Assembly (NCBI GenBank): GCA_965648905.1
Contig: CBFGIT010000008.1
Coordinates: 22,255-86,254, forward strand
Direction: 5' to 3'
Source of the DNA: a candidate division WOR-3 bacterium
GTDB lineage: Bacteria > Hydrothermota > Tepidihabitantia > Tepidihabitantales > Tepidihabitantaceae
Length of the DNA: 64,000 bases
A program made the translations under genes and the position numbers. Below are positions 8,567 to 38,047 of this stretch, piece after piece; position 1 is the first letter of the stretch; every line of letters begins with the position of its first letter. The notes beneath the pieces are model-generated. The model ran no database searches. It saw only the letters and a program-made list of their open reading frames with translations, and was not told the origin of the DNA.

Positions 8567-9221
8567 CGACTGAACTGACAGAATCCTGGTCGTAGAGCCT
8601 CCTGATGCTTGAGATAACCGGCCGAGGTTGCGTAACTAACTGGGTTTCCGATGCTCAAGTTCAGGACCGTGTTCCACGCCGCGGAAACGGCCCGAACTGA
8701 GCAATAAGAATAACCATAAGCTGAGAAATGTCAATAGCACCTGCCACCAACTCAAACCAAAAGTCCCCGGCTGGCCGGGGTTCTCCGGTGACGCCGGAAT
8801 GTTGCCCGAGCGAGTGCTTCTGCCCGTCACCGCCGATAACCGTGCCATCGGCGCTGCCAGCCCGCTCCGGCCTGCTGCCGGGCCGGCGACCGACATTGAC
8901 AGAGCCTAATCCCGGCTGTAGCCTTAGTCGTCATTGTCAGACTGCCGAACGTTCCGGGGTGCGTGCGGAACTATCGTGTGGTGTCAGTCCACTCCCTGCC
9001 CCATGCGCCGCAATGCACCCCTTTGCTCGCACGGCTTGATTCCGGTCTGACCGACGCCGACCCGACCAACCCGTGACGCGAACTGCTAATCACATGCCCG
9101 ACAGAACTCAAGCCGCCGGCTCAACTCGATTTCCTCCCCTGTTGCTGGCCGGCGCGGCATGCCCATCGCCCTGATGCTCACCCCTGGCTGTCGGCACCTT
9201 TCCATTTTTCGCTCCCGGACG

Positions 9222-10031
9222 ATGTCGTACAACGCCGGCGTGTTTGTGTCTGCCGGTCAGGCGATGCTTATTGACCCGGGAATCTTCCCGGACGAAATGG
9301 ACCGACTCCGTGCTGCGGTGTATGAGCAGGACGCCGTGCCGGCCCGGCTGGTTATCACTCACAGCCACTGGGACCACCTGCTCGGGCCCGAGTACTTCCC
9401 GGATGTGCCGGTCGTGCAGCAGGTCGAAGCTGAGGCGGTGCTGGCCGAGTTCCGACCGGCAATTGAACGTCAGGTCACCGACTGGGAACGGCAGAACCGC
9501 ATCGAACGTGAGCAGCCGTTCTTCTGTCCTGAGCCGGATGAGACATTCGGGGCCCGGACCGAGCTCGCCGTCGGCAACGAAGCGCTGCAACTCATGCACG
9601 CACCCGGTCACGCCCCCGAACACCTTGTCGTGTATCACCCGGCATCCGGGCTGCTCTGGGCCGGCGACATGCTGAGCGACATCGAAATCCCCTTTGTCAT
9701 GCACAGCCTTGTTTCTTACCAGCGCACGGTTGAAGCGCTGGCCCGCCTCGACGTGCGCGTGCTCGTGCCCGGACACGGACAGGCGACGAGCGACCCCAAG
9801 GAAATCCGCCGCCGCTTCGAGCGCGACCGAACCTACCTCGACCGACTGCACGAAACGGTCGCGGCCGCAGTGGCGGCAGGCAGAAGCCCCTCCGAAACAC
9901 TGCATGCCAGTGCCGGCCTGAGTCCGCTTCCTGGCAATGAGGAACCGCACCGGCTGAACGTCGAGACCGCATTCCTCGAGCTGGCCGGCCGACGCGAACC
10001 AGACCACAAAGGCTGGAGCCGACTGCAATGA
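9222..10031 (+). CDS. MBL-fold metallo-hydrolase
   Basis: HSHWDH (HxHxDH) motif, downstream His/Asp ligands (PGHAPEH, PGHGQ). Start placed at MSYNAGVFVS; an upstream ATG at 9159 is also possible. Confidence 0.75.
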   Translation: MSYNAGVFVSAGQAMLIDPGIFPDEMDRLRAAVYEQDAVPARLVITHSHWDHLLGPEYFPDVPVVQQVEAEAVLAEFRPAIERQVTDWERQNRIEREQPFFCPEPDETFGARTELAVGNEALQLMHAPGHAPEHLVVYHPASGLLWAGDMLSDIEIPFVMHSLVSYQRTVEALARLDVRVLVPGHGQATSDPKEIRRRFERDRTYLDRLHETVAAAVAAGRSPSETLHASAGLSPLPGNEEPHRLNVETAFLELAGRREPDHKGWSRLQ

Positions 10032-10714
10032 GAATCCTCGGCACACTGATAAACGCCGGAGCGGTGATCGTCGGCAGCCTGGTCGGACTCGTGTTCCACA
10101 CCCGTCTGCCCAGACGACTGACCGAGGTTGCATTCCAGGGCATTGGCCTGTTCACCTTGTTCATCGGGTTCACGATGGCTGCCAAAACCCAGCACCTGCT
10201 GGTGCTCGTTTTTTCGATTGTCCTCGGTGCCGTTGCCGGTGAACTGGCGGCAATCGACCGTCACCTGAACCGGCTCGGCGACTGGCTCAAGACGAAACTC
10301 AAGTCCACCAATGCTCGTTTCACTGAAGGGATGGTTGCGGCGTTCCTCTTGTTCTGTATGGGCTCGATGACCGTGCTCGGAGCAATCGAAGAAGGCCTGG
10401 GCGCCAGACCGAACCTCCTCGTTGCCAAGTCGGTGCTCGACGGCTTTGCCTCAGCCGCACTGGCCGCGTCTCTGGGCGTCGGCGTGCTTTTCTCGGTCAT
10501 TCCGCTGCTGGTCTACCAGGGAACTCTGACCGTCTTTGCCGGCTCGCTCCGTCCGGTCCTATCCGACCCGGTTGTGAACGAAATCACTGCGGTCGGCGGA
10601 CTGATTCTCGTAGGGCTCGGAATCAACATCCTCGAATTGCGGCAACTCCGAGTCCTGAACATGCTGCCCGCGCTGGTTGTCGCCGGCGTGCTGGCCGCCC
10701 TGTTTGTCCGATGA
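10028..10714 (+). CDS. DUF554 (YqgA-like) family membrane protein
   Basis: 228 aa multi-TM protein. N-terminal ILGTLINAGAVIVGSLVG matches the YqgA/DUF554 pattern. ATGA overlap with the upstream MBL gene. Confidence 0.7.
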   Translation: MRILGTLINAGAVIVGSLVGLVFHTRLPRRLTEVAFQGIGLFTLFIGFTMAAKTQHLLVLVFSIVLGAVAGELAAIDRHLNRLGDWLKTKLKSTNARFTEGMVAAFLLFCMGSMTVLGAIEEGLGARPNLLVAKSVLDGFASAALAASLGVGVLFSVIPLLVYQGTLTVFAGSLRPVLSDPVVNEITAVGGLILVGLGINILELRQLRVLNMLPALVVAGVLAALFVR

Positions 10715-10777
10715 AGCTCTAGTCGAGAAGCATCGCCCCTCCTTGCGGAGGGGCGACTCCATTCCGAAAGCGCGCGG

Positions 10778-11404
10778 CTAGTCTACTGCCTGTACGCTCC
10801 TCGGCTGCAGGGAGAAATCTATCCCGGTCACCGGCTGGCCGTTCTCGATGACAACCGGTTCAGGATACGTCGCGCACGAGTACCCTGACTTCATTGCCTT
10901 CACTGTGTACGAACCATCGGCCAGACCGGCAATCGTGTAGGTGCCGTCATCTCCAGTCATGGCATAGCGGCCGCAACTGCCGGCCGTTACCTTGGCCCCG
11001 GCAATTGGCTCACCGGTCGCCGCGTCAGTAACCCGGCCGGAAATTGAGCCGCTGCCACCTCCACCGCCCATCGGTCTGAGCGCGATGTCGATTCCGGTCA
11101 CGGCCTGACCTTCCTCAACCCGCACCGGCGTGGGGTAAGTCTTGGCGTAGTAGGCGCCGCACTTCATCGCCTTGACCGAATAGCTGCCCGGGGCAAGACT
11201 ACTGATGGTGTAGGTTCCGTCGCCTGCGGTAGTTGCGGAGCGACCGCAGCCACCGACCGTAACCTTGGCGCCGGCGATTGGTGCGCCGGTCACGGAATCG
11301 GTAATCGTCCCTGATATCGACCCGGTTCCAAGGTCGCCCTTGGGAACCGAGACCGCAGCAAACAATAGCGTCGCACACGCGACCAGGACTGCGAACGTCT
11401 TCAT
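10778..11404 (-). CDS. Secreted protein with two tandem carboxypeptidase-regulatory-like (CarboxypepD_reg) domains
   Basis: Signal peptide MKTFAVLVACATLLFAAVSVP. Two ~90-aa internal repeats (ISGxxTDxxTGxPIAGAKVTxGxCGR...DGTYTIxxLAxGSYTVKAMKxGY...PVTGIDxxL). Confidence 0.65.
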   Translation of the reverse strand: MKTFAVLVACATLLFAAVSVPKGDLGTGSISGTITDSVTGAPIAGAKVTVGGCGRSATTAGDGTYTISSLAPGSYSVKAMKCGAYYAKTYPTPVRVEEGQAVTGIDIALRPMGGGGGSGSISGRVTDAATGEPIAGAKVTAGSCGRYAMTGDDGTYTIAGLADGSYTVKAMKSGYSCATYPEPVVIENGQPVTGIDFSLQPRSVQAVD

Positions 11405-11504
11405 CGATGCTCCTGTTAGTTTGTGGACCGTGGATTATCATAGCCGGTGCAGACCACAAGTCAAGCCAGGCTTGCACGCGGCTTCTCTCTGTCTATTATC
11501 AGTC

Positions 11505-12251
11505 GTGTTCAGACTTCTGCTCCTTATCCTGCCCGGCTTGGTTCTCGGTCAGTTCGTCGAACTCGGCCCCGGCGGCACGCTCCTGATGAACGTGCCCTAC
11601 TGCGGCGGCTGAGGCGACGGTGAGCGGTACCAGGTTCTGGTACTTGCCTCCGAGATGCCCGGGCCCTGCACCATCGATTCGGTCCAGCTCCTTTGCGGCA
11701 GCGATGAGTATGACCACGGCATCTTCTACAACTCGCTCATCCTCGCCTGCCACACATCGGTCGGCGAACTGGAGAGCACCTTTGACCGTAACTACACAGG
11801 CAACGTCCCAGAAACCGTTATGTCCGCTAACCCGCTCGTGCTGCAATGGGTCAACAACCAGTGGCACGGGCTCGCATTCAACCGCCCGTTCAGCTACAAC
11901 GGCATCGACAATCTGATTCTCGAATACCGCTGGCAGGGTGATGACGGCAACTCGGTCTACGACCGTGGGTTCTACACGGTCGGCAACCGAGCCTGTGACG
12001 CCCGGTCATCAACCGCCCCGCGCGGCACCCCTCGCAACTACATGCCACGCCACCGCATCTTCTACTCGCTCACCGCGGTCGAAGAACCCGCCGCTCTCCG
12101 GTCAAGCCGACCGTCGCCTTCGGTCTGTGCCGGCACCGACCACGGCCTGCTCTACGACGCTCTCGGCCGACCGGTCGCGCAGACCCCAACCGGCGTCTAT
12201 TTCCGGGTCCAACCTCGGGGCCGCTCGGCCCGTCTGCTTATCATCCGGTAG
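11505..12251 (+). CDS. Secreted protein with T9SS-like C-terminal sorting domain. Signal-peptide exon (GTG 11505) joined to body through an in-frame TGA at 11610; candidate selenocysteine/recoding site or pseudogene
   Basis: Same frame throughout: MFRLLLLILPGLVLGQFVELGPGGTLLMNVPYCGG-TGA-GDGERYQVLVLASEMPGPC...GVYFRVQPRGRSARLLIIR. The downstream ORF 11655..12251 alone lacks a signal peptide. Confidence 0.4.
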
Positions 12252-12263
12252 CGGGCTTTTTCG

Positions 12264-12292
12264 TTAGACATTGGACATCACATCGCTATAAT
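12264..12292 (+). promoter_or_regulatory. Near-consensus sigma70-type promoter TTAGAC-17-TATAAT for the flxD-like operon
   Basis: TTAGAC at 12264-12269, 17-nt spacer, TATAAT at 12287-12292, about 17 nt before the ATG at 12310. AT-rich island in a GC-rich background. Confidence 0.45.
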
Positions 12293-12309
12293 GACCTCTT
12301 ACCCTACCA

Positions 12310-12756
12310 ATGAGTATCGACGACCCGCCGAACGCAGGCTTTGAACCAAAGATCGTCGCGTTCCTGTGCAACTGGTGCTCCTATGCCGGTGCTGACCTGG
12401 CCGGCATCTCCCGCATCCAGTACCCGCCGTCAATCCGCGTCATTCGCGTCCCCTGCTCAGGCCGGGTTGACCCGTTCTACATCCTGAAGGCGCTCCAGAA
12501 CGGTGCTGACGGCGTGCTCGTCTCCGGCTGCCACCCGGGCGACTGCCACTACCTTACCGGCAACTACGTTGCCCGGCGCCGGTTCGCAGTGCTCAACGAC
12601 CTCCTGGAGTTTGCCGGCATCGACCCGGGCCGGGTCAGCTTCTCCTGGGTTTCGGCTGCGGAAGGCGAGCGCTTTGCCGAAGTCGTGCGCGAAGTCACGG
12701 AGAAAGTCCGGCAACTCGGGCCGAACCGCAAACTGGTCAAGGAGTCGGTTGGATGA
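12310..12756 (+). CDS. MvhD/FlxD-like iron-sulfur subunit (methyl-viologen-reducing hydrogenase delta subunit family)
   Basis: CNWCSYAGADLAG...PCSGRV...GADGVLVSGCHPGDCHY, the MvhD signature. Confidence 0.85.
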   Translation: MSIDDPPNAGFEPKIVAFLCNWCSYAGADLAGISRIQYPPSIRVIRVPCSGRVDPFYILKALQNGADGVLVSGCHPGDCHYLTGNYVARRRFAVLNDLLEFAGIDPGRVSFSWVSAAEGERFAEVVREVTEKVRQLGPNRKLVKESVG

Positions 12757-13598
12757 ACCGCCAGGACCAGCTCCGCCAGCGTGCCCGGGAGCTGCTCGAA
12801 GGCAAAGAGGTAGTTCTGGTGCTCGGCTACCGGTCAGGCCGACGACCCGGAACTGCCACGCCCGCGTTCATCACCCGTCCTGAGGATGCCGACAAACTGG
12901 TCTTCGACGACCGCTGCGGCATGAACCTGGCCGCGTACCTGCCGCGCGTCAAGAGCCGAGGCAGGATTGCCATCGTTGCCAAAGGCTGCGACTCGCGTTC
13001 CATTGTCACGCTGCTTAAAGAGAAACAGGTCACGCGCGACCAGCTCTTCATCCTTGGAGTCGCCTGCGAGGGCGTCAAGGAGCAGGGCCGGCTCAGCGAC
13101 TCTTGTACCACCTGCGAATACCCCAACCCGGTAGTCTTCGACGAGATGATAGGAGACACATCTCGAGGACGCGATTCCGCATCGTGTCCCCGGGCCCAAA
13201 ACGACTTCGAGAAGCTCTCCGCGGATGAACGCTGGCAGGTATTGATGGACGACGTCTCCCGCTGCATCCGCTGCTATGCCTGCCGCCAGGTCTGTCCCAA
13301 CTGCTACTGTCCGACCTGCTTTGTCGACGCGAACAACCCGCAGTGGGTCGGCAAGACCACGTCCGGTCCAGACAACATGATGTTCCATCTCATGCGGGCC
13401 ATGCACATGGCCGGTCGCTGTGTCGAGTGCGGCACGTGCAGCCGGGCCTGCCCGATGAGTATTGACCTGATGAGGTTCAACCGCAAGGTAGCGCAGATAG
13501 TCAAAGACCGGTTCGGTGCGGTCGCGGGTCTGAACCCGGACGAACCGCCCGCCCTCGCCGCGTTTGACCCGAACGACCGGCAGGAGTTCATCAAGTGA
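12753..13598 (+). CDS. 4Fe-4S dicluster oxidoreductase subunit, HydB/AsrA/FlxC-like (shorter paralog)
   Basis: CIRCYACRQVCPNCYCPTC and CVECGTCSRACPMSIDL ferredoxin-type cluster motifs. ATGA overlap with the upstream gene. Confidence 0.7.
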   Translation: MNRQDQLRQRARELLEGKEVVLVLGYRSGRRPGTATPAFITRPEDADKLVFDDRCGMNLAAYLPRVKSRGRIAIVAKGCDSRSIVTLLKEKQVTRDQLFILGVACEGVKEQGRLSDSCTTCEYPNPVVFDEMIGDTSRGRDSASCPRAQNDFEKLSADERWQVLMDDVSRCIRCYACRQVCPNCYCPTCFVDANNPQWVGKTTSGPDNMMFHLMRAMHMAGRCVECGTCSRACPMSIDLMRFNRKVAQIVKDRFGAVAGLNPDEPPALAAFDPNDRQEFIK

Positions 13599-14671
13599 AA
13601 CCCGGCATCATCACGGCCCAAGAACTGGCTCGGCTCGTGGCCGAGTGGGCCAAGACCAGCGCGGTCTTTGCCCCGGTCAGGGTGAAGAACTGGACCGAGT
13701 TCCGGCGCATATCTTCGCTCGGCGAGGCCGACCTTACGCGCGTGAACACCAAGCTGTCTGCCCGCACTCTGCTCTTTCCTCAGTGCGAGACGATGTTCCG
13801 GTTCAGGACTGACCGGCCGGCAGACCCAGAAGAACCGGCCCTGCCTGAGAAACAGGTCATCCTCGGTATTCGTCCGTGTGATGCTGCCGGCATCGCACTG
13901 CTCGACAAGTTCTTCTGTGGTCAGGGCGAAACCGACACCTACTACCAGCGCCGCCGCGCCAAGACGGTGCTTGTCGGCCTTGCCTGCAATGCTCCGGCCG
14001 ACACCTGCTTCTGCTTGGCAGTTGGTGGTTCACCGGCAGGCTTGCGCGGGCTCGACCTGCTGCTCACCGACTTGGGCGACAGGTACCTGGCTGAACCAGT
14101 TACCGACGCCGGCGCTGCCCTTCTGATACCAATCGGAGAGACTCTCAGGCCGGCAACCGATGCTGATACGGCGAAGAAGCAGGAACTGGCCGAGCAGGCC
14201 GGCGCTGCGATTACCGGGCGCATCGACACCCCAAGACTCAAGGCCCTGCTCGACAACTCAGACCAGAGCCCGGTATGGGAGGAACTCAGCCTCGCCTGCG
14301 TCAACTGCGGAGCCTGCACCTTTGTCTGCCCGACCTGCCATTGCTTCGACGTCACGGACGAGACCGGCAAAGGCCAGGGCGCGCGCATCAGGGTCTGGGA
14401 CACCTGTCAGGCCTGCCTTTACTCCCAGCACGCCTCAGGCCACAACCCGCGTGCCACTCCTGCGGCCCGATTCCGCAACCGGACCATGGACAAGTTCAAG
14501 TACACGGTCGAAATATACGGCGAAGTCTCCTGCGTCGGCTGCGGCCGCTGCATCATCGAGTGTCCAGCCGGGATTGACGTTAGAGAAACGGTGCAGACGT
14601 TGACCGCAGCACTGCAGGCAGAACCGGAGCCGGACGCAGTGCAGAAGGCAAAGTGCAAAACAGGCAACTGA
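13595..14671 (+). CDS. 4Fe-4S dicluster oxidoreductase subunit, sulfhydrogenase-beta/AsrA/FlxB-like
   Basis: 358 aa. CVNCGACTFVCPTCHCFD and CVGCGRCIIECPAGIDV motifs. N-terminus resembles AsrA/HydB. Confidence 0.7.
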   Translation: MKPGIITAQELARLVAEWAKTSAVFAPVRVKNWTEFRRISSLGEADLTRVNTKLSARTLLFPQCETMFRFRTDRPADPEEPALPEKQVILGIRPCDAAGIALLDKFFCGQGETDTYYQRRRAKTVLVGLACNAPADTCFCLAVGGSPAGLRGLDLLLTDLGDRYLAEPVTDAGAALLIPIGETLRPATDADTAKKQELAEQAGAAITGRIDTPRLKALLDNSDQSPVWEELSLACVNCGACTFVCPTCHCFDVTDETGKGQGARIRVWDTCQACLYSQHASGHNPRATPAARFRNRTMDKFKYTVEIYGEVSCVGCGRCIIECPAGIDVRETVQTLTAALQAEPEPDAVQKAKCKTGN

Positions 14672-15021
14672 CATTGAGGGACCTGAAGGAACGGCTATTG
14701 GACTTCGCCACTGTGTGCTTGAAACTGCACGGCAAGCTGGGTCGCACTGTGCCCGGCCGGTACATTGGCGGTCAGATGATGCGCTCGAGTTCTTCTGCCG
14801 GAGCCAACTACTACGAGGCCTGTGGTGCGGAAAGCCGGGCGGACTTTGCCCACAAACTCCAGATCGTACTCAAAGAACTGCGCGAGACTGAGTACTGGCT
14901 GAAGCTCGCCGGTCGAGGCGGCCTACTCTCGCCGGATGACGTCAAACTAGCCGCAACCGAAGCGGACGAACTGGCTCGCATCATCGCTAAATCTGTCCTT
15001 ACTACCAAGTCGAGAACGTGA
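14653..15021 (+). CDS. Four-helix-bundle protein (TIGR02436 / 23S rRNA intervening-sequence protein family), copy 1
   Basis: GQMMRSSSSAGANYYEACGAESRADFAHKLQIVLKELRETEYWLKL is the family signature. Paralogous to 36835..37203. Inserted between the flxB-like and flxA-like genes. Confidence 0.75.
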   Translation: MQNRQLTLRDLKERLLDFATVCLKLHGKLGRTVPGRYIGGQMMRSSSSAGANYYEACGAESRADFAHKLQIVLKELRETEYWLKLAGRGGLLSPDDVKLAATEADELARIIAKSVLTTKSRT

Positions 15022-15082
15022 TGAGCCTGCGTCCCGGTTTTGCCTTGCCCGTTCTGCACTTTGACTTGACCATTGCATCCTC

Positions 15083-15919
15083 ATGAATCCCTATCTCCCG
15101 ACACCTGTCAAGGTCGCCCGCGTCACCGTTGAGAACGACGCCCGCGACCTCAAGACCTTCGACCTCTCGTTTGTCGAACCCGAGGCCCGCAAGTCATTCA
15201 ACTTCATTCCGGGCCAGTTCGCTTTCCTCTCCATCCTCGGCGTGGGCGAAGCGCCGTTCGGCATCGCCTCTGCCCCTTCCGAAGAACTAATCAAGTACAC
15301 GGTCAAGCGGGTCGGTACCTTCACGACTGCGCTGCACGAGCTGGAACCGGGCGCGGTCGTCGGCATGCGCGGGCCCTGGGGCAACTCCTACCCATTTGAC
15401 CTGATGCAGGGCAAAGACGTCGTCATCGTCTCCGGCGGCTTCTCGTTCACCACCCTGCGCTCGACCATCGTCTATCTGCTCGACCCGGCCCGCCGGTCCC
15501 AGTTCGGCAGGATAACTGCGGTCTACGGTGCCCGCTCGAGCGGCGAGCTGCTCTACAAAGACGAAATCAAAGCCTGGGAATCAAGCCCCGACCTTGACCT
15601 GCACCTCTGCGTTGACCGGCTCGGCGGTGCGGCCTGGCCTAAGACCGAAGGCTTAGTCCCCAACGTGCTCAAACAGGTTGCGCCCTCAGCCGCAAACGCG
15701 GTCGCACTGGTCTGCGGTCCGCCGGTCATGATTCGCTTCACCCACCCGGTCCTGGAGCAGCTCGGATTCAGGCCGGAACATGTTTTTCTATCACTGGAGA
15801 ACCGGATGAAATGCGGCATCGGCAAATGCGGCCACTGCAACATCGGGCCCAAGTACGTCTGTAAAGACGGCCCGGTCTTCTCCTACGCCCAGCTCAAGAC
15901 CCTCCCGGCCGAGTACTAA
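15083..15919 (+). CDS. FAD/NAD(P)-binding oxidoreductase subunit with C-terminal 2Fe-2S (HydG/AsrB/FlxA-like)
   Basis: Ferredoxin-reductase-type FAD- and NAD-binding folds. C-terminal CGIGKCGHCNIGPKYVCKDGPVF. Confidence 0.8.
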   Translation: MNPYLPTPVKVARVTVENDARDLKTFDLSFVEPEARKSFNFIPGQFAFLSILGVGEAPFGIASAPSEELIKYTVKRVGTFTTALHELEPGAVVGMRGPWGNSYPFDLMQGKDVVIVSGGFSFTTLRSTIVYLLDPARRSQFGRITAVYGARSSGELLYKDEIKAWESSPDLDLHLCVDRLGGAAWPKTEGLVPNVLKQVAPSAANAVALVCGPPVMIRFTHPVLEQLGFRPEHVFLSLENRMKCGIGKCGHCNIGPKYVCKDGPVFSYAQLKTLPAEY

Positions 15920-16033
15920 CCGCCAAGTCGCCAGCGCCGGGCCTTCGGTTACCCGGTAACCACGACCTGAGATACGCTCTGCGCTTGACGCACCTCGACC
16001 ATTCGTGGCGGGACGTCGCTCCGGCAACTTCGG

Positions 16034-17062
16034 TCATGCCTTCTCGTCCTGGTCCGGCGGAATCATGACCTTGTACCTCTCCCACGCCGCCAGCGCCGCT
16101 TCGCCTGCCTTGATTGCCTGCTCGGACCGCCTCTTCCAAGTCGCGACGTAGTCGGCAATCATTCGCCGTTTGCTTTCCAGGTCCAACTCGGGAAGAGCGG
16201 CAATCGCCCCGATGATGCGCGCGGCATCGCTCAGCCGCTTGAACATGAAGCCTTCTGCCACCAGCGGCTCCAGCGTCTCGTGCGCCGCCCGCTGCGCCTG
16301 TGACTCGACAAAGGCCTTCATCTTCGCACCGTGGTCGAGCTTCGCCCGCCGCTCGTCCCACGCCTTCTCTTTGACGGTCGTCTCACCCAGACAGACAAGC
16401 GTCGCAGACCCGGCATACACCTCGCCCTGGTTCAGCTCGAGCTCAGTGAGGACATCGCTTATCACTTCTCCCAGAGCCTCCACCATCGCCGGGTCAAGGC
16501 CCTTGCTCCTGCAGACCGCGATGCCCCGCGCCACCCGGTCTTCCAGACGCCGCCGCTTGCGACCGGGCCAGCGCCAGTGCGCCCGGCAGATTCCTCGTGC
16601 CGTCTTCACCAGCCACTTGCGCTGGGCCGGCTTCAGGGTTTGGCCGTAGCTGTCGACCAATTGCTCCAGAGCCTCATCCAATGGCCGGCTCTCAATGACG
16701 GCGTTCTTGAACGCTTCGAGCCGGCGCTGTCGGACTTCCGGCTGCTCGGTCCTTGTCTGTGGCTCCGGCTGGGCCACCGGCTTCGTCTCCGGCTCAGGCG
16801 TCCTTGCCGTGAGCGGCCCAAGCAGGTCGAGCAGGTCGGCAAAGCCTGCCCCGCATCCGCGCAGGTAGTCCACGACCAGGCCGAACGATGGATAGGGAAC
16901 CTTGCCGCGCTCCAACTGGCTGGCCAGGACTGCCGCGCCTTTGCCGGCCCTGCCTGCCCGCGCCATCAACTTAGCCTGGGTCAGACCCGCCCGCAGCCGC
17001 AGCGAACGCAGCCGGGCACCCAATTCAGGTGTGAATCTGGCCGTATCAGCACAACGTTTCAT
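16034..17062 (-). CDS. XRE-family helix-turn-helix protein with long uncharacterized helical C-terminal domain
   Basis: N-terminal HTH LGARLRSLRLRAGLTQAKLMARAG. The remaining ~270 aa have no motif I recognise. Confidence 0.55.
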   Translation of the reverse strand: MKRCADTARFTPELGARLRSLRLRAGLTQAKLMARAGRAGKGAAVLASQLERGKVPYPSFGLVVDYLRGCGAGFADLLDLLGPLTARTPEPETKPVAQPEPQTRTEQPEVRQRRLEAFKNAVIESRPLDEALEQLVDSYGQTLKPAQRKWLVKTARGICRAHWRWPGRKRRRLEDRVARGIAVCRSKGLDPAMVEALGEVISDVLTELELNQGEVYAGSATLVCLGETTVKEKAWDERRAKLDHGAKMKAFVESQAQRAAHETLEPLVAEGFMFKRLSDAARIIGAIAALPELDLESKRRMIADYVATWKRRSEQAIKAGEAALAAWERYKVMIPPDQDEKA

Positions 17063-17461
17063 GGCTGTCCGCCTTTCCCCTCCATTATATTGAAAGACTA
17101 AGCGACCTGCAATCCGGTCAAGTGAGACAACGCCAGCCGATTAAACGACTTAGCCGCCAGCAGCCGTCGTTCTCAACCCCCCAGGGGGAACGGTCTGGGG
17201 AGCGGTAAGGGAGACGGCGGCCCGAGCCGCTTTCCCGGCCCAGAACCCGGCGGTTTCGCCCGCGTCTCCCCTTGCGGCTTTCCCTGTGGCTCGGCCTGTT
17301 GCTCAGGCAGTCGCAGAGATTTCGGCAGACCGGGCCGCAGCGACAGCGGCAGGCCGAGCAGAACCCGGAGTCGCAATCAGGGCGGCTCGGCTCATCGCTC
17401 GCCACGCGGCTCACCGTGCCGACCTCCTCGCGGCCCGGCGCGCCGCAAGGGCAGCAGCCGC

Positions 17462-18427
17462 CTAAATCGCTTCGATAGTCGACGGCGGCTTGGCCGTGAT
17501 ATTATAGGTCACGCTCACCACACCCGGCACTTCGGTCGTGATGCGTGAGGCGAGCCTCTCCAGCTTCTCGAACGGCAGACGAGTCACGGTCGCGGTGACT
17601 GCGTCCGTGCTCTCCCAGCACCGGACCTCAATCTGGTGTCCGAAGTCCCGCTTGCCTGCCCTCATGCCGGTCACCCTGTCGTTGTGCAGGATGGCAAGAA
17701 ACTGGAACGCGCCCGAGCCCTTAAGTTCCTGCTCGACAATCAGGGTCGCCTTGCGCACGACCGCAACGCGCTCGGGCGTCACCTCGCCGATGACGCGCGC
17801 GGCCAGAGCCGGGCCTGGGAACGGCGGCCGGGCAAAGATTTCTTCGGGCAGGCCGAGTTCCTTGCCCACGCGGCGAATCCCGGTCTTGCGCAGTTGCAGC
17901 ACCGGCTCAAGTACTCGGTACCCGAACGCGGCCTGGGTGTCGATGCCGAGTTGTTCGAGAATGTTGTGCTGCCGCTTCACGCCCGCGACCGTCTCCTCAA
18001 CGTCGGTCCAGTTCGTGCCCTGCAACAAGTACTTGGCCCCGCTCTCCTTCACGAGGCGACCGAACACCTTCTTGTAGAAAGTCTGAGTAATCGCCTCGCG
18101 CTTCTCCTCCGGGTCGGTCAGCCCTTCAAGCGCGGCGAAGAACTCGTCCTCGGCGTGGACCAGTTCGACCGCAACGCCCAGCTTCCTGAACACCTCGACG
18201 ATGTACTCCGGCTCGCCCTCACGCATGATGCCGTTGGCGATGAAGAAGGTCTTCAGCCGCTCGCCCAGCGCGCGGTGGCCGATCATCGTCACGACCGACG
18301 AATCCACGCCACCGGACAAGGCGTTCACGGCCCGGCCGCTTCCCACGGTCCTCTTCAGGCTCTCGACCTGCTCGGCGACAAACTGCTTCGGATTCAGCTC
18401 TTCAAGCGGTATCTCTTTGACGTTCAC
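17462..18427 (-). CDS. guaA: GMP synthase PP-ATPase subunit (archaeal-type split GuaA, subunit B)
   Basis: PP-loop ALSGGVDSSV and the GMP synthase C-terminal dimerization region. No glutamine amidotransferase domain in this ORF. Confidence 0.8.
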   Translation of the reverse strand: MNVKEIPLEELNPKQFVAEQVESLKRTVGSGRAVNALSGGVDSSVVTMIGHRALGERLKTFFIANGIMREGEPEYIVEVFRKLGVAVELVHAEDEFFAALEGLTDPEEKREAITQTFYKKVFGRLVKESGAKYLLQGTNWTDVEETVAGVKRQHNILEQLGIDTQAAFGYRVLEPVLQLRKTGIRRVGKELGLPEEIFARPPFPGPALAARVIGEVTPERVAVVRKATLIVEQELKGSGAFQFLAILHNDRVTGMRAGKRDFGHQIEVRCWESTDAVTATVTRLPFEKLERLASRITTEVPGVVSVTYNITAKPPSTIEAI

Positions 18428-18580
18428 TCTGTCTCCGTTTCGGGTTTGTTGTGCACTTGCACTAGGCTAGCCACGACCGGCGTGAGGTCAAGCATAAGAA
18501 GTAGGTGACTGTCCCTAGTTTCGTGGCGAGAAGCGGGCCGGGTGTTGCCCGGCCCGCTTGAAGGTGATGAGCGGTTTCGG

Positions 18581-21304
18581 CTAGTTGCTCTTGACCAGCT
18601 TGACCGTGCCCGAGAACTCGCCGGCCTGCATCTGCACGTAGTAGATGCCGGTGCCGACCGTCTGTCCGGCATCGTTCACGCCGTTCCACAGCAGGGCGTA
18701 GTACCCGGGCCGCTGCGCGCCGGCAAACAGAGTCCTGACCTGTCGGCCGTCCGCCGAATAGACCGTGATGCGCACGTCAACCGAGCGCGGCAGTTCGTAC
18801 CGCACGCCTGCGACCGCCGCGGACGGATTGGCGCCAAGGCTTCTGATGCTGAACCGCCTGGGCAACTCGGCTCCACCTACGACACCGGTGAGCGGAATAA
18901 CCTGAAACGAGTCCGAGACCATGTCGTTAGCCGGGTTCTCGTCGCCGGCTAGGAGCGTCCTGGCCTGAGCTGCGAACCAGCCGACCGGCTGTGCCACCCA
19001 GTTCGCAAAGCTGACCGTGTCGGTTGCCCCTGAGGCAATGGTCACTGACTGCGTGTCGGCATAGCCCGAGCTGATAAGGAACTCAACGTCAAAAGTCTCA
19101 GGCGACGAGCCGAGATTGACAACCACGGCCTGCGGCACTATCACCAGCCCTGAGTCAACCTGACCGACCGGCGCGACAATCACATGCGCAGCCACGTCGT
19201 GAGTGAGTGCGACCGGCGTGATGTCGCCGGTGATGGTCCAGGCAAACGGCTGTTTCGAGCCGGTCGCGACGTTCTGTGCGCCGACCCAGATTGCCCACTC
19301 GCCGGTGTCAGGCGCGTTGATGCGCGCGCACTCTTCGACGTTGACCGCGTCCCAGGTGCCGGGGTTGGGCTGGGACTGACCGCCCGAGTACTTGTTACCC
19401 CGGTACTCAGTGCCGCCCGGCGCGATCAGTTCGAGGTTCAGGTCGTTGACCAGTGTCGGGTTGGCGCTGGGCGCGGCCGCGGTATCGGTCCACGCCAGGC
19501 ACGCACGCAGCGGGATAGACGAGTTGACGCGGAAGCGAATCTCCTTGAACTGACCGGTGGCAAGCCCGACCGTGTCGTCCATTATCATGAGCTTGCGCTC
19601 ATCGCCCGGGAAATAGAGCACCGAGTCGGCATCGATGCGGCCCCAGCCGATGTCAAAGCTCGGGACTGTGTACGAACCGACGTTCGGGTCCGCCGACACC
19701 ATTGCCATCGAACGCAGCAGGGCCGCGCTGATATAGCTGATGCGGTTCTGCGGCTCGGGCGTGCCGGTCGGGTAGTACCCTTCCTGCAGGTAGCAGCGCA
19801 TCAGGCCGACCGTGCCGTTCGCGGTCGGCGTGGCCATCGAGGTACCGGACATCTGCGAGTAGGTGTTGGCGCCGGTGTTCCGAGCCGACCAGATGTCCAC
19901 GCCCGGGGCCACGACGTTGGGCTTGATGCGGTTGTCCTGGGTCGGGCCGCGGCTTGAGAAGCTGGCAATCGTGTTGGAGCTGGTGCCGCGATTGGTCGCG
20001 CCGATGGTCAGCACGTTCTTGGCGATGCCGGGGTTACGCAGCCGCCGGGTCGAAGTCTCGTTGCCCGCAGCCATCAGGTTCATGAAGTCCTTGTGCGCCC
20101 AGCCGAATGCGTCGGTCGAGGCGTCCTGAATCAGGTACGTTCCCTGGGTATTAGACCAGCCCCACGAGCCGGAATGCTGTTTGATTGGCCGAACCGAGTC
20201 GGGCAGAGTGCGGCCGAGGTAGACCGTGTCCCACATCGGCGTGTGGTCGGTCGGCACGAGGAACGACGTGCCGTTGGTGATGTCCACAAAGTAGTACCGC
20301 GCATCCCTGGCCATGCCGTCGTAATAGCTCGTGCCGCCGGTCACCGAGTCGTCACCACAGATACTGCCCGCCACATGGCTGCCGTGATACTGGCCTTCGC
20401 TTACGTCGGCCGAGCCGAACCGCTTGTACGCGACCACCTTGCGGTGGTCCGGCCACACTCCGGGCGGCGTGATGGCCAGCGCCGGGTCGCGGAACATGTC
20501 GTGCCCGGTATTGAGACCGGTGTCGGTCGCGGACATGATGACGCCCTGGCCGCGCACGCCGTTGCGCCATACCGGCCGCGCTGCCATGCTCGTATCCGGC
20601 GGCGACGTGGCCAGGTACCCGCTCTGCATCACCCATTGTGACGTGTTGTTGCAGAACGAGCCTTCGCGGAACTCCTGAATCCAGAACGTCTGAGACAGGC
20701 GGGCAACCGCAGCAATGTCGTCCGGCTCAAGTGCGGCCGTGATGGTCGTGCCGAAGCTCGATGTCATCTTCTCCTCCACGACACCGCCAGCAGCCTCGAT
20801 CGCATCGGTGATGGCAGTCGGGTCTTCGCCCTGCATAGCCAGGATGACCACACGCTTCATTCCGACCTCGTCGAGCAGACCGGGCTCGAGCTTGTACGCC
20901 GGCTGGAACAGCCCGACCCAGCGCACGAATGGCCGGGCCTTGGCCTGGGCGACCTGGTTCGGGTCGAGCTTGGCCAGCATCGCGTAGTGCGGCACATAAC
21001 CGAACACTCTGATGCCGTGCTCCTTTAGAGCCGAAACCCATGCCTGCTCAATCGGCCCGGTGAACTGCACGATGTAGTACTGGGTCGCCTGCCCGGTGCC
21101 GTCGAGCCTGAGTTCGGCCGGCAATGGTGGCTCGCCGGTGCGAGTGTCGATGACGTAGCCGCTTGAGAAACTGATGAAATTGGCTTCTTCTCCGGTAACC
21201 GGCTTGAACCTGCCCACCGGCCCCATGTCATACTTCGGGACGGCAAGCACCGGAACCGCCAGTACCGCAAGCAGCAGAGGTACTGCCTTTGATAGATGTC
21301 TCAT
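18581..21304 (-). CDS. Secreted subtilisin-like serine peptidase (S8) with T9SS-type C-terminal sorting domain
   Basis: Signal peptide. Asp (ATDTGLNTGHDMF), His (GSHVAGSI) and Ser (GTSMATP) catalytic motifs. C-terminal GIYYVQMQAGEFSGTVKLVKSN. Confidence 0.85.
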   Translation of the reverse strand: MRHLSKAVPLLLAVLAVPVLAVPKYDMGPVGRFKPVTGEEANFISFSSGYVIDTRTGEPPLPAELRLDGTGQATQYYIVQFTGPIEQAWVSALKEHGIRVFGYVPHYAMLAKLDPNQVAQAKARPFVRWVGLFQPAYKLEPGLLDEVGMKRVVILAMQGEDPTAITDAIEAAGGVVEEKMTSSFGTTITAALEPDDIAAVARLSQTFWIQEFREGSFCNNTSQWVMQSGYLATSPPDTSMAARPVWRNGVRGQGVIMSATDTGLNTGHDMFRDPALAITPPGVWPDHRKVVAYKRFGSADVSEGQYHGSHVAGSICGDDSVTGGTSYYDGMARDARYYFVDITNGTSFLVPTDHTPMWDTVYLGRTLPDSVRPIKQHSGSWGWSNTQGTYLIQDASTDAFGWAHKDFMNLMAAGNETSTRRLRNPGIAKNVLTIGATNRGTSSNTIASFSSRGPTQDNRIKPNVVAPGVDIWSARNTGANTYSQMSGTSMATPTANGTVGLMRCYLQEGYYPTGTPEPQNRISYISAALLRSMAMVSADPNVGSYTVPSFDIGWGRIDADSVLYFPGDERKLMIMDDTVGLATGQFKEIRFRVNSSIPLRACLAWTDTAAAPSANPTLVNDLNLELIAPGGTEYRGNKYSGGQSQPNPGTWDAVNVEECARINAPDTGEWAIWVGAQNVATGSKQPFAWTITGDITPVALTHDVAAHVIVAPVGQVDSGLVIVPQAVVVNLGSSPETFDVEFLISSGYADTQSVTIASGATDTVSFANWVAQPVGWFAAQARTLLAGDENPANDMVSDSFQVIPLTGVVGGAELPRRFSIRSLGANPSAAVAGVRYELPRSVDVRITVYSADGRQVRTLFAGAQRPGYYALLWNGVNDAGQTVGTGIYYVQMQAGEFSGTVKLVKSN

Positions 21305-36170: not shown

Positions 36171-36614
36171 GGTACTTGCGGTGAATTGTACTCATAGACA
36201 CCTGTATGCAGTCTATCACCACCATGCCTGCCTGTCAACTTCGGCTTTTGAGAATCACTAAGTCCGTAAGTCTTAGCCAAATAATATATTAACATATCCT
36301 CTGATACTGATGCTCGGTTCAGTACGCTTCTGGCCAGGCATCTGCTGCAGTCCGTGTCCCGCACCGTGTTCCGTGTCAGGCATCCTGCACTTTGAAGCCT
36401 GCATTCTGCCCTGGCAGCAATAGCGCGCTGGCCTGGTCATTGAGGCTTGGGCTTTACCACTCCCCTCCATCCGCCCTCTGCTGCCCGACACCCTACGACT
36501 CGGTCATTGCAGTCTGCACCATGCCCTCCGTGCTTGACTTCACCGCGCCCCGGCCTATATTTCGGGTCTATGCGGAATGGCGAGCAGCCCGACCAGAACC
36601 AGCTCATCCGGCGC

Positions 36615-36800
36615 GATGTTCTACCCTATGCCGAGGGCGTCTGTGTGAACGAGAGCAAGACCAAGATAGGCTACGAAATCAGCTTCAACCGCTACTTCTA
36701 CAAACCCCAGCCGCTTCGGACGCTCGAACAAATCCGCGCCGACATCCTGGCGTTGGAGAAGGAAACGGAAGGACTGCTGGACGAGATAGTCGGAAAGTGA
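36615..36800 (+). pseudogene. C-terminal remnant of a type I restriction-modification methyltransferase (HsdM-like) gene
   Basis: Only the last ~60 codons of ORF 36447..36800 look like protein: DVLPYAEGVCVNESKTKIGYEISFNRYFYKPQPLRTLEQIRADILALEKETEGLLDEIVGK, which matches the HsdM C-terminal NRYFY...LEEI pattern. The upstream part of the ORF is low-complexity non-protein-like. Confidence 0.45.
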
Positions 36801-37497: not shown

Positions 37498-38047
37498 CTC
37501 CTCTCCGCCCCTACCCTACCTACAAGCCCTCCGGCATGCCGTGGCTGGCTGGCTGACACCGTGTTCGACCTGACCTACAACAAAGAAGTCGCGTAGCGAC
37601 GCCCGGTCTCAGTTCGACTCGGTCAGCCTCTCGCTAACAGCAACTGAGAGCTCCTTTGCCCCTGAACAGGACCGTAGGCCGTGCTATGAGCAATGCCTGC
37701 AGTCGTGCTTCTCGAAGTACCGGCTTGAGTGCTTGGCAGCGTGACACCAGAAGTCACTTATGCTGCACTGGCTGGTGTCACATTGCCTGTACTCGGAGCA
37801 GTTCAGGACCAGATGACGACTGCTTGGACGGTGGCGATCACGCTGGACGTGCCATTAGGATTGCCGAGACGATGGAATCGAAAGATGACACCGGCCGTTC
37901 CGAATGGAATGACATTGGGAATGCTCTAGGGAACCGCCTGCCGGACGTCCCCAATCCTCCAGTTCAGCAGTCACTTCTTTCGCATAACCGATTGACCGCT
38001 AAACCGTTAGCCGCAATCAGCCGTATGTCGCCCAGTTAGACGACTTG

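Follow-up and report, generated by a model that had tools for sequence, protein, structure and literature searches.

A four-helix-bundle (4HB) gene lies between the flxB-like and flxA-like genes of a WOR-3 bacterium, and together with two flanking arms it makes up a cassette of 449 nt (14632-15080; left arm, 4HB ORF, and right arm). Comparison with related genomes shows, on synteny, that the cassette was inserted exactly at the stop/start junction of flxB-like and flxA-like genes that ancestrally abutted, and that it belongs to a large family of cassettes at operon junctions that have been gained, lost, or exchanged among lineages. We think it rather probable (about 0.6) that it resembles the intervening sequences (IVSs) of rRNA genes, lacking any detected promoter and having arms that pair with each other in the RNA of the operon. 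This type of cassette is widespread at the operon junctions of many phyla and is apparently undescribed. (A full-text search of the literature outside subscription-only sources found no paper that links heptamer arms to 4HB genes.) Positions are those of the window, which is the whole 64,000-nt stretch of DNA that we analysed, and labels such as L004 denote related loci.

A four-helix-bundle gene between two inverted arms

Table 1. Cassettes, host genes, and related features of the window.
Feature	Start	End	Strand	Remarks
Promoter-like site ahead of flxD (12310)	12265	12292	+	TAGACA-16-TATAAT (11/12)
flxB-like Fe-S protein (AsrA / sulfhydrogenase-beta-like), upstream host	13595	14671	+	Fer4_22, 3.5e-30
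Left arm, GGACGCAGTGCAGAAGGCAAAGTGCAAAACAGGCAA	14632	14667	+	Decayed array of ~5 heptamers, within the final flxB-like codons
4HB ORF (S23p / 23S rRNA IVS protein family)	14653	15021	+	122 aa from GTG 14653
Right arm, TTGCCCGTTCTGCACTTTGACTTGACCATTGCATCC	15045	15080	+	Ends 2 nt ahead of the flxA-like ATG (15083)
flxA-like FAD/NAD(P)-binding 2Fe-2S protein, downstream host	15083	15919	+	Profile matches
Second cassette, left arm	36796	36828	+	Heptamers GATGAAT/GATGAGT; overlaps the stop of an hsdM C-terminal remnant
Second 4HB ORF (paralog)	36835	37203	+	39% identical to the first
Second cassette, right-arm region	37373	37511	+	Three tandem 45-nt units (tandem repeat finder)
Solo five-heptamer array	54911	54945	-	GCAGAAT CCAGAAG CCAGAAT GCAGAAG CCAGAGC; between large- and small-subunit genes

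The initial annotation had described a 4HB gene that occupies the gap between positions 14671 and 15083, and both the gene and the coordinates held up. The ORF fills the space from the flxB-like stop (14669-14671) to the flxA-like ATG, and its product scores above the cutoffs of both PF05635 (59.1 bits, cutoff 33.8; 5.8e-16) and TIGR02436, "four helix bundle protein" (75.3 bits, cutoff 24; 4.1e-21). The start codon is uncertain. The GTG at 14653, which was originally proposed and overlaps the end of the flxB-like gene, is one option; another is TTG 14674 (115 aa; 2 nt past the flxB-like stop), the position at which the closest orthologues (L004, L082, and L083) have an aligned ATG. This ATG overlaps the flxB stop as ATGA, and in the same orthologues the arms are clean heptamer arrays (TGCAAAC/TGCAGAC/TGCAAAG). 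In L004, the homologue of the right arm at 15045-15080 is the distal one of its right arms.

The arms form an inverted repeat that is far above chance. In the best register (14632-14667 with 15045-15080), 28 of 36 nt are complementary (78%). The repeat that was noted initially is thus confirmed, but its register (14638-14664 with 15034-15060; 27 nt, 74%) is a second one within the same repetitive arms. The local-alignment score of the arms was 16, as compared to 6.6 +/- 1.2 for equally spaced control pairs from the window, and just 1 of 1197 controls reached 16. A test based on duplex energy was not significant (-43.1 versus -34.3 +/- 7.9 kcal/mol; 87 of 655 controls were as good); this test is cruder and the window is GC-rich, and we used the alignment-score null in its place. 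Both the minimum-free-energy fold and the centroid fold of 14600-15100 close the cassette with an arm-arm stem, while the stability of the whole-region fold was no greater than for shuffles (z = -0.15).

The promoter-like site ahead of flxD is the sole one found for the flxD-flxC-flxB-4HB-flxA unit, and neither a promoter-like site nor a + strand terminator-like site was found within 14632-15080. The flxB-like protein is similar to ShyB, HydB, and AsrA, with scores under the equivalog cutoffs. Its gene is about 12 aa longer than in relatives with an empty site, where flxB ends in ...LPEK or ...AEKK and stops right at the flxA ATG; in our reading, the original stop is displaced by the cassette insertion. 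Unlike the other genes of this genome, the flxA-like gene has no Shine-Dalgarno (SD) sequence within 25 nt of its start, and the ancestral SD-bearing codons (CCGGAG) now lie at 14624-14629, directly 5' of the left arm. (On the - strand, a 342-aa ORF at 16034-17062 has no match in NCBIfam.)

Synteny points to an insertion at the flxB/flxA junction

We compared 80 related genome loci with a conserved flxD-flxC-flxB-flxA cluster. In 77 of these, flxA comes directly after flxB, with a gap of at most 80 nt in 71. Of the 77 loci with the pair, just three (L001, L002, and L004) have a 4HB gene in between, and all of these carriers are the closest WOR-3 relatives. In the sister lineages L003 and L005, the junction is empty and reads GGAGAA(G)TAG/ATG; in the sister lineage L006, too, the TAG/ATG junction is empty. 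Because flxB and flxA are adjacent in so many loci, with the 4HB gene in only three and with empty junctions in sister lineages, we conclude from synteny that the 4HB gene is an insertion and not an operon member. This agrees with the initial suggestion of an insertion: relatives do not all carry the gene at the same place, and most of them lack it between adjacent flxB and flxA.

Two types of cassette are found at this junction: type A in the window, L004, L082, and L083, and type B in L001 and L002. The 4HB protein from the window is 81-82% identical to those of L004 and L082 but 63-65% identical to that of L001, which is the sister by host genes. Furthermore, L082, L002, and L003 have close host genes (their X proteins are 86-92% identical), yet they have a type A cassette, a type B cassette, and no cassette at this junction, respectively. 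On these identities, the distribution of cassette types contradicts the similarities of the host genes. In L003, a cassette is found between hdrC-like and hdrA genes, inside the remnants of L002-type arms.

We saw no target-site duplication when we compared occupied to empty flxB/flxA junctions, and this data set contains no near-identical cassettes at different sites. The term "insertion-prone" from the initial annotation is apt in the evolutionary sense, but we found neither an insertion mechanism nor a recent identical copy. Synonymous sites between cassettes are saturated, so recent movement or transfer cannot be claimed, and the site polymorphism within WOR-3 could come from ordinary homologous recombination.

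The 4HB protein

The motif of this protein family, (G)xxRxxxSxxxNxxE (Zhang & Ye 2013, PMC3936711; credited also to Lin 2006), is present in the cassette ORF as GGQMMRSSSSAGANYYEA, with the G one or two residues further from the R than published. Across seven aligned cassettes, the R, S, N/Y, E, and A of the motif are invariant, except that the N is H in the paralog at 36835. A profile search of PDB reached just one structure by sequence, 2RLD (BT_0352, five chains; E = 7e-29), and did not reach Avd or Xcc0516. An AlphaFold model that was built from a two-sequence alignment is all-helical and has low confidence (pLDDT 59.6); with this low-confidence model, Foldseek put 2RLD and 2GSC on top, followed by Avd (4DWL, 8UB7). 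By analogy to these relatives, the 4HB protein is probably pentameric, and it may bind structured nucleic acid, as Avd does. The protein is basic (pI 9.4). Its dN/dS against orthologues is 0.05-0.07 (about 0.06), which implies strong purifying selection, and by this measure it is maintained by selection. PADLOC gave no match, and PHROGs gave just a marginal match, for the paralog, to a family of unknown function.

Similar cassettes at many operon junctions

The same layout, an ORF with flanking inverted arms, was found at 65 of 77 related 4HB genes in unrelated operons, which supports the initial idea of an IVS-like cassette. These cassettes have a median span of 486 nt and a median arm complementarity of 87%. 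The arms are tandem heptamers (the lag-7 autocorrelation is 0.72/0.70 in the arms versus 0.24 inside the ORF), most often five of them on both sides, and the lengths of the left and right arms are correlated (rho = 0.43, p = 0.002). Although the heptamer varies from cassette to cassette, it matches between the two arms of one cassette: the best partner of a left flank was its own right flank in 32 of 77 cassettes, and the own right flank ranked third or better in 54 of 77. Duplicated right arms occur in L004, L082, L085, L087, and L141 and a triplicated one at 37373-37511 of the window, and ORF-less hairpins or solo arrays are found at operon junctions in L043, L039, and the window (54911-54945).

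The arms abut the neighbouring stop and start codons. Co-orientation with the 4HB gene was seen for the upstream neighbour in 48 of 55 cases, for the downstream neighbour in 40 of 53, and for both neighbours in 32 of 44. The host junctions among related cassettes include POR subunits, HlyD/AcrB, LysRS/MacB, SDR/LarA, and Hdr genes, and those in annotated records include helicase/methylase, csx2/cas1, and DUF1156/HEPN. We found no convincing rRNA context near 160 related loci, where there were isolated single-motif matches at up to 2 mismatches.

As a way to tell pairing of RNA from pairing of DNA, we counted the mismatches between arms that are G:T, which would be tolerated as G:U in the sense RNA, or A:C. 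There was no excess of G:T over A:C (49 versus 63, p = 0.22), so selection specifically on the sense RNA is not favoured.

The window contains two 4HB copies and no others. The second, at 36835, was initially described as a paralog of the first, and it is a real but distant one (38.6% identity over 114 aa; tblastn E = 4.5e-20). Its protein shares 61% identity with a Chlorohelix protein annotated as "four helix bundle protein," which also has GATGAAT-type arms. The second cassette has its own inverted repeat (36796-36817 with 37376-37397; 20/22), and each 45-nt unit of its right-arm region holds the inverse heptamers CATCACT/CATTCAT. The fragment ahead of this gene has no match in Pfam or NCBIfam; by tblastn, it is a C-terminal remnant of a type I methylase (66% identical to the C-termini of hsdM, on plasmids). 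It had been claimed that each paralog lies within its own inverted repeat at an operon junction. Both repeats are real, and the first gene is at a junction, but the gene at 36835 follows the hsdM remnant, with no intact junction.

The array at 54911-54945 has neither a 4HB ORF nor a partner arm and may be the footprint of a cassette. We take the genes around it to be aconitase/isopropylmalate-isomerase-like (leuC/leuD-like), an assignment made by reading their sequences, not by family search.

How the cassette might be tolerated

Because no promoter-like site lies within the cassette, it is probably transcribed from the promoter of the host operon. Within the transcript, the arms would pair to form a stem of ~36 bp with the 4HB coding region as the loop, as in the IVSs of 23S rRNA, and with this stem the flxA start would again lie next to the flxB end. 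In the window, the displaced SD (GGAG, 14626-14629) would be 2 nt from the base of the stem, and the ATG on the opposite side would likewise be 2 nt from it. This geometry, with the stem as a bridge to the SD, fits the window and L004, but it is not general, as it does not fit L001, L002, or L082. The stem may also offer a site for RNase III, which would cut the cassette RNA out of the polycistronic message. Either SD bridging or excision by RNase III would let the insertion persist without polar damage. Translation of the 4HB gene may be coupled to the ribosomes that are finishing flxB, because the 4HB start lies in or just past the left arm.

We also offer a broader proposal, which is speculative and which we think is rather unlikely to be right: that 4HB cassettes are a distinct class of mobile elements for operon junctions. 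A pentameric, Avd-like ring would read the roughly five heptamers in the arms of its own cassette (one per subunit, as RNA or as single-stranded DNA) and would promote copying, exchange, or precise loss, perhaps along with host RNase III or a reverse transcriptase. The orphan heptamer arrays of Geobacter, Xanthomonas, Beggiatoa, and cyanobacteria would be ORF-less derivatives or footprints of such cassettes, and the IVSs of rRNA would be a special case in which the host transcript is an rRNA.

Alternative explanations

It is possible, but not likely, that the arms act at the level of DNA, as structure-specific ends (a foldback or hairpin of single-stranded DNA, or array recombination sites) that move or swap the cassette. 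The 4HB protein would then be a mobility factor, and the ORF-less arrays and hairpins would be non-autonomous or footprint derivatives, related to it as REPINs are to RAYT or MITEs are to ISs. A mismatch spectrum that is symmetric between strands fits this idea, as do the replaced or nested cassettes within older arms (L003 versus L002), the duplicated and triplicated right arms, the ORF-less hairpins and solo arrays at operon junctions, and the opposite-strand pairs of five heptamers in Geobacter (PMC2700814). The two arms of a cassette are also alike and correlated in length while their sequences differ between cassettes, and copying or gene conversion between the arms would produce the likeness within a cassette. 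But the 4HB protein has no nuclease, recombinase, or polymerase domain, and the comparisons above gave neither a target-site duplication nor near-identical copies at different sites, with synonymous sites being saturated. A mechanism that involves DNA only would not require the strong co-orientation with host genes, and duplex DNA is unlikely to form a cruciform across a 400-nt spacer. (Arms that act as DNA are compatible with an RNA stem too.) More doubtful is a domesticated module for post-transcriptional control from which the host would benefit. Much as repeated triplets are wrapped by TRAP, the heptamer arms of the operon mRNA would be bound by the 4HB pentamer, which would compete with arm pairing, tune the translation or stability of the downstream gene, and set the stoichiometry of subunits. 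Even among close relatives whose operons are identical, the cassette is present in some only, which speaks against a regulator that is needed, and the same module occurs in operons that are functionally unrelated, even though a basic protein under strong purifying selection, arms that abut or cover the downstream start region, and the match between arms of most often five units and a solved relative with five chains are what a control module might have. That Avd binds a defined RNA element also favours it.

Two other explanations seem very improbable. If the 4HB protein were an ordinary ancestral subunit or assembly factor of an Flx/Hdr-type redox complex, with incidental complementarity on either side, then one would expect what is seen: a gene in the same orientation as flxB and flxA, packed tightly against them, and probably translated along with them. 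This is contradicted by the synteny data: the gene is absent from 74 of the 77 orthologous clusters, which come from both bacteria and archaea, and homologous cassettes are found in unrelated operons, besides the inverted repeat being far above chance. We give equally little credence to a remnant of a diversity-generating retroelement (DGR) in which the 4HB gene encodes the accessory protein Avd. The family is related to Avd (PMC10053308), and the Avd structures 4DWL and 8UB7 come after 2RLD and 2GSC in the Foldseek results for the low-confidence model, but the profile does not reach Avd by sequence. There is no reverse transcriptase among the identified neighbours, which are Flx-type redox genes (though the 342-aa ORF at 16034-17062 matches no NCBIfam family), and no pair of template and variable repeats, as 9000-21000 has no direct repeat of at least 35 nt. 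We also considered and rejected an IS- or MITE-type element: the sole ORF is the 4HB gene, the arm sequences differ between cassettes, and there is no target duplication.

Implications

We propose that the cassettes could link four things that have been noted separately: the unexplained ORF-bearing IVSs of rRNA, the swarms of 4HB paralogs in many genomes, the orphan tandem-heptamer repeats of several phyla, and the 23S_rRNA_IVP genes that recur inside cas, restriction-modification, and other defence operons. They are also a warning about guilt by association, as a 4HB gene that is found within a cmr3/cmr2 or an hsdM/hsdS pair may only be lodged there and be no component of the system. For an uncharacterised protein family, to which the DGR accessory protein Avd belongs, the cassettes provide a handle, with the five-heptamer arms as a candidate ligand and with natural pairs of occupied and empty sites. 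More generally, they raise the question of how a 450-nt insertion between translationally coupled genes can avoid polar effects, and the answer could serve the design of synthetic operons.

Comparison with known systems

Like an integron cassette, the 4HB cassette has a single ORF, no detected promoter, probable transcription from the host or platform, and an imperfect inverted repeat at its boundary, and cassettes at one site can be exchanged. In contrast to integrons, it has no integrase, attI, or attC, its arms bracket the ORF instead of lying at one end, and the insertion sites are scattered operon junctions. In the REP/REPIN-RAYT and MITE-IS systems, too, a short repeat lies in inverted copies on both sides of a gene, along with ORF-less copies that are intergenic and often within operons (as in L043, L039, and 54911-54945), but the 4HB protein is not an HUH/Y1 transposase and has no catalytic domain, there is no target duplication, and the heptamer is particular to each cassette and is not one genome-wide repeat.

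Orphan heptamer arrays are the same kind of sequence as the cassette arms and are found in the same places. The arms of L136 and L159 match STRR heptamers of cyanobacteria, TTGGTCA for instance. Geobacter metallireducens has opposite-strand pairs of five tandem heptamers (MTYCTGA), for instance between proB and proA (PMC2700814); Xanthomonas has 70-75 convergent pairs of GGGAATC (PMC4692102); and in Beggiatoaceae, TAACTGA arrays lie just upstream of start codons (PMC4679880). In these papers, the arrays are interpreted as sites for regulators, as G-quadruplexes, or as elements of translation. None of the three connects them to 4HB genes, and we found no mention of "four helix," "S23," or "intervening sequence" in their text.

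There are functional analogues in phages, in which an intercistronic stem is cut without loss of expression or brings a distant SD to the AUG. In phage T4, the split ribosome-binding site of gene 38/25 is bridged by a hairpin. The early mRNA of phage T7 has intercistronic RNase III sites (cited in PMC4990558). Unlike the proposed stem of the cassette, these phage hairpins are short and local, and their loops contain no gene.

The Avd protein resembles the S23 proteins; it forms a pentameric barrel with a positive charge and binds a stem-loop of RNA (bioRxiv 10.1101/2023.10.23.563531). The cassette protein is related to it as a basic four-helix-bundle protein; the pentameric barrel and the binding of structured RNA are Avd's features. 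In contrast to the systems of Avd, the cassette has no reverse transcriptase or TR/VR repeats, the sequence similarity is below detection, and Avd genes have not been described with inverted heptamer arrays that bracket them.

The closest parallel to our preferred reading is the rRNA IVS with an S23p ORF, which is found in 23S (and 16S) rRNA genes of Leptospira, Coxiella, Brucella, and Xanthomonas and also in CPR bacteria. Such an IVS sits within the rRNA gene, at the tip of helix 9, 25, or 45, whereas the cassette lies between protein-coding genes and its host RNA is a polycistronic mRNA, at a stop/start junction. (In the window, Rfam finds only three tRNAs and no rRNA.) In Coxiella, RNase III excises an IVS of 428 nt that has a 28-bp terminal stem and contains an S23p ORF (PMC4990558); for the cassette, processing by RNase III is a proposal. 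The ORF in Coxiella is decaying and untranslated, while the cassette ORF is under strong purifying selection. The arms of the cassettes are heptamer arrays. What the two have in common is the protein family (PF05635), the size class (449 nt for the cassette and 428 nt in Coxiella, with IVS elements being about 0.4-0.8 kb), an ORF within terminal inverted repeats for which a long stem is predicted (28 bp in Coxiella; arms of 36 nt in the cassette), and a sporadic distribution that suggests horizontal transfer (PMC4990558).

A four-helix-bundle gene inserted between flxB and flxA

The + strand around 14632-15071 carries a tightly packed row of genes, in which a four-helix-bundle (4HB) ORF encoding 122 amino acids lies between genes that the initial annotation called flxB-like and flxA-like. 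Those names are reasonable: the proteins are similar to sulfhydrogenase beta/gamma and AsrA/AsrB, with scores under the equivalog cutoffs, and in relatives the genes lie downstream of hdrA and mvhD. (The window genome has no hdrA ahead of its flx genes, unlike L002 and L003, two loci from our scans.) The 4HB ORF matches Pfam PF05635 (23S rRNA-intervening sequence protein; 59.1 bits, curated cutoff 33.8) and NCBIfam TIGR02436 (four helix bundle protein; 75.3 bits, curated cutoff 24), and its sole relative within the window is a second 4HB ORF (38.6% identity, E = 4.5e-20). Against solved structures, a seven-protein 4HB profile has a single match, 2RLD (E = 7e-29), which is BT_0352, "S23 ribosomal protein family," with five chains. 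The protein is basic (pI 9.4); a 2024 survey still termed the S23p/4HB domain functionally uncharacterised. The ORF could start at GTG 14653 or TTG 14674, and orthologues show an ATGA overlap, which suggests that its translation is coupled to that of flxB.

Features of the window discussed in the text (positions in nt)
Feature	Coordinates	Strand	Basis
Promoter-like site TAGACA-16-TATAAT	12265-12292		
flxD (MvhD/FlpD-type)	12310-12756	+	family profile searches
flxC (Fe-S gene of the flx row)	12753-13598	+	family profile searches
flxB-like (Fe-S)	13595-14671	+	family profile searches
Codons CCGGAG	14624-14629		
Left arm	14632-14667		
4HB ORF	14653-15021	+	family profile searches
Right arm	15045-15080		
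flxA-like (FAD/NAD-binding, 2Fe-2S)	15083-15919	+	family profile searches
hsdM remnant	36600-36800		
Second 4HB ORF	36835-37203		
Region downstream of second 4HB ORF	37204-37511		
Three tRNA genes in a row	48974-49309	-	Rfam
leuD-like ORF	54377-54871	-	
Solo array GCAGAAT CCAGAAG CCAGAAT GCAGAAG CCAGAGC	54911-54945	-	
leuC-like ORF	54957-56219	-	

We scanned one genome per species for flxB-like proteins and obtained 80 loci, which span many phyla of bacteria and archaea. The four-gene flx cluster is conserved throughout, and the two genes are normally adjacent: flxA is immediately downstream of flxB in 77 of the 80 loci, with a gap of at most 80 nt in 71 loci, 105-177 nt in three, and 418-492 nt in three. 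A 4HB gene fills the gap in the last three (L001, L002, and L004); these loci, from candidate division WOR-3, rank among the closest relatives of the window (flxB 63-81% identical). In the equally close L003, L005, and L006, the flxB stop adjoins the flxA start (GGAGAA(G)TAG/ATG), with a Shine-Dalgarno sequence within the last flxB codons. An ancestral operon member, the alternative that the initial annotation had set against an insertion, would be expected in all orthologous clusters; we found the gene in three loci and empty junctions in close relatives. Thus, the cassette at 14632-15080 is an insertion. The window's flxB extends about 12 codons into the left arm, and the ancestral Shine-Dalgarno-bearing codons CCGGAG now lie just 5' of that arm. 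No Shine-Dalgarno sequence for flxA is present within 25 nt upstream (15058-15082); flxC, flxB, 54871 (leuD-like), 56219 (leuC-like), 39721, and 54375 in the same genome do have one.

The inverted repeat around the 4HB ORF

The inverted repeat reported around the 4HB ORF is real. In the best register, 28 of 36 nt are complementary, and the local-alignment score of the arm pair is 16, as compared to 6.6 +/- 1.2 for 1,197 control pairs of the same spacing taken across the window, just one of which reaches 16. The register originally described is a second one of the same arms, offset because the arms are internally repetitive. The left arm is placed inside the final flxB codons and the right arm ends 2 nt 5' of the flxA ATG. 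The arm-arm stem closes the cassette in both the minimum-energy and the centroid structures; the duplex energy of the arms did not differ significantly from controls, and the cassette region folds no more stably than shuffles (z = -0.15).

Heptamer arms are a family trait

Searching metagenomes with a 4HB alignment added 80 loci, and among these and the copies from the genomes and the window, 77 cassettes had usable flanks. A flanking inverted repeat scoring at least 13 is present in 65 of the 77, and arms score a mean of 20.6 with their own partner versus 9.5 across pairs. In 32 of the 77, the right flank that pairs best with a left flank is the one from the same cassette; in 54, it ranks among the best three. 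The arms consist of heptamers in tandem (autocorrelation of 0.72 left and 0.70 right at lag 7, and 0.72 at lag 14, against 0.24 inside the ORF), most commonly with five units per side (21 of 59 for left and right arms alike; median length 33-35 nt), and left and right arm lengths are correlated (rho = 0.43, p = 0.002). The heptamer varies among cassettes (ATTGAAA, GCCAAAA, GATGAAT, TGACCAA, TTGTCAT, and others), median arm complementarity is 87%, and the median element length is 486 nt. In the window's flxB/flxA cassette, the heptamer periodicity has decayed and the complementarity is retained.

Neighbouring genes are mostly co-oriented with the cassette (upstream 48/55, downstream 40/53, both 32/44), and the arms adjoin their stop and start codons. 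The host operons are unrelated: they include pyruvate:ferredoxin oxidoreductase subunits, HlyD/AcrB efflux pairs, LysRS/MacB, SDR/LarA, and Hdr genes, and, in annotated plasmids of cultured bacteria, helicase/N-6 methylase, csx2/cas1, and DUF1156/HEPN. The 4HB copy in Chlorohelix shares 61% identity with the second paralog of the window; its arms are of the same GATGAAT type and its context is different. An ORF with inverted heptamer arms is a family trait of 4HB cassettes, which supports and considerably extends the original proposal of an IVS-like insertion cassette.

Many cassettes have two right arms, 25-110 nt apart (L082 4385-4502, L004 7170-7276, L085 4366-4535, L087 884-1011, and L141 4828-4939). 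The repeated unit in L082 seems to take in the downstream gene's start and runs up to the end of the contig, which may point to an assembly effect. In two other loci (L136 613-662 and 1081-1129; L159 1949-1981 and 2402-2434), the arms are AATGACC/TTGGTCA repeats, the heptamer of the cyanobacterial "STRR" fingerprinting repeat, so that some STRR arrays may be 4HB cassette arms.

Repeated occupation or exchange of cassettes among WOR-3 relatives

Host-gene identity groups the loci as (window, L001), (L002, L003, L082), and (L004 = L081, L005), followed by L006 and L007. There are two cassette types. Type A (window, L004, L082, and L083; proteins 78-91% identical) has TGCAAAC/TGCAGAC/GGCAAAG arms; type B (L001 and L002; protein identity 80-83% within the type and 59-66% with type A) has TTGCAGA/TTGCAGG arms. 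The window's 4HB protein is 81% identical to that of L004 but only 63-65% identical to that of its host sister L001, and a single host clade contains type A (L082), type B (L002), and a junction with no cassette (L003). By these sequence comparisons, the flxB/flxA site was occupied more than once or cassettes were exchanged.

The same relatives have a second cassette-bearing junction, between an hdrC-like gene and hdrA. There, L003 (990-1470) has a cassette with (GCCAAAA)n arms nested in remnants of another kind of arm, the GTCGAAGTCAG...CTAGAAGCTAGAG pair that brackets the L002 cassette at this site (985-1475). The nesting suggests that a cassette was replaced within pre-existing arms. Homologous recombination among relatives could explain part of the cassette distribution. 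Between cassettes, dN/dS of the 4HB ORF is 0.05-0.07 and synonymous sites are saturated; therefore, the ORF is functional and the events are old, and this saturation lends no support to recent movement.

The second cassette and ORF-less arrays

The initial annotation placed both of the window's cassettes at operon junctions. This holds for flxB/flxA but not for the second paralog: the ORF ending at 36800 keeps only the C-terminal part (~66 amino acids) of hsdM, the methylase gene of a type I restriction-modification system, and shares 66% identity with copies on enterobacterial plasmids; there is no intact hsdM or hsdS near the cassette, so it sits in a decayed restriction-modification operon. 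Downstream of the second 4HB gene is a small ORF-less hairpin (37208-37224/37270-37286, also 37213-37227/37341-37355), and 3' of it are three tandem 45-nt units, each with right-arm heptamers, giving this cassette three right arms. In appearance, this right end is composite or has been remodelled repeatedly.

Five heptamers form a solo array that occupies most of the 85-nt gap between two ORFs which, judging by their sequences, look like aconitase/IPM-isomerase large and small subunits; GGAGGTGAAGT-ATG follows 3' of the array. It has neither a 4HB ORF nor an inverted partner, and could be what a lost cassette left behind. Two Verrucomicrobiota genomes have related structures at the flxB/flxA junction: L043 (1250-1330) carries a heptamer hairpin that lacks an ORF, TTGCGCCTTTTGTGGTT/AACCACAAAAGGCGCAA, its stem perfect over 17 nt, and L039 (7075-7115) carries a solo array, CGAAAAA GCGAAAT CCGAAAT TCGAAAT.

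A proposed mechanism

The cassette would be transcribed with the rest of the operon: 18 nt 5' of flxD lies a strong promoter-like site close to the sigma-70-type consensus, and no promoter-like or terminator-like sites were found inside the cassette. The arms would pair in the RNA, looping out the 4HB coding region and bringing the flxB end and the flxA start close again (in the window, the order is GGAG, 2 nt, stem, 2 nt, ATG). Because the ancestral Shine-Dalgarno codons are just 5' of the left arm, the stem would set them beside the flxA ATG. RNase III may cut the stem, as in rRNA IVSs; the Coxiella IVS (428 nt, with a 28-bp stem and an S23p ORF) is excised by RNase III (PMC4990558). We infer this pairing and processing, and likewise the mechanism of movement. 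Alternatively, the arms might act at the DNA level, in exchange or foldback copying, which is compatible with a role in RNA. Arm mismatches have no G:U bias, which counts against an RNA-specific reading, so a DNA-level role remains a serious rival to pairing in the transcript. As for the protein, its relative Avd, a DGR accessory protein, is a pentameric, basic barrel with a defined RNA stem-loop as its ligand (bioRxiv 10.1101/2023.10.23.563531); by analogy, and because the arms have five units, the 4HB protein may bind the arms.

Comparison with known systems

The cassette has the structure that defines an ORF-bearing rRNA IVS but differs in location, as it lies in an mRNA; the window contains no rRNA, and the tRNA genes are its only Rfam matches. 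It is not a DGR (there is no reverse transcriptase among the identified neighbouring genes and no TR/VR pair), nor is it an IS or MITE in the usual sense, as it has no transposase, shared ends, or target duplication. Previous studies had reported separate elements of this pattern and left them unlinked: 23S_rRNA_IVP genes between cas genes, such as cmr3 and cmr2 (PMC3936711); in Geobacter, pairs of "five tandem heptanucleotide repeats" lying between proB and proA and interpreted as regulator sites (PMC2700814); convergent GGGAATC pairs in Xanthomonas (PMC4692102); and TAACTGA arrays in Beggiatoaceae (PMC4679880). In the open full-text literature, which our search covered, we did not find 4HB genes described as heptamer-armed operon cassettes. 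What is new here is an IVS-type element that lives in operon mRNAs and has a defined heptamer-arm architecture. The pattern is general, can be tested directly, and bears on several features of bacterial genomes that lack an explanation.
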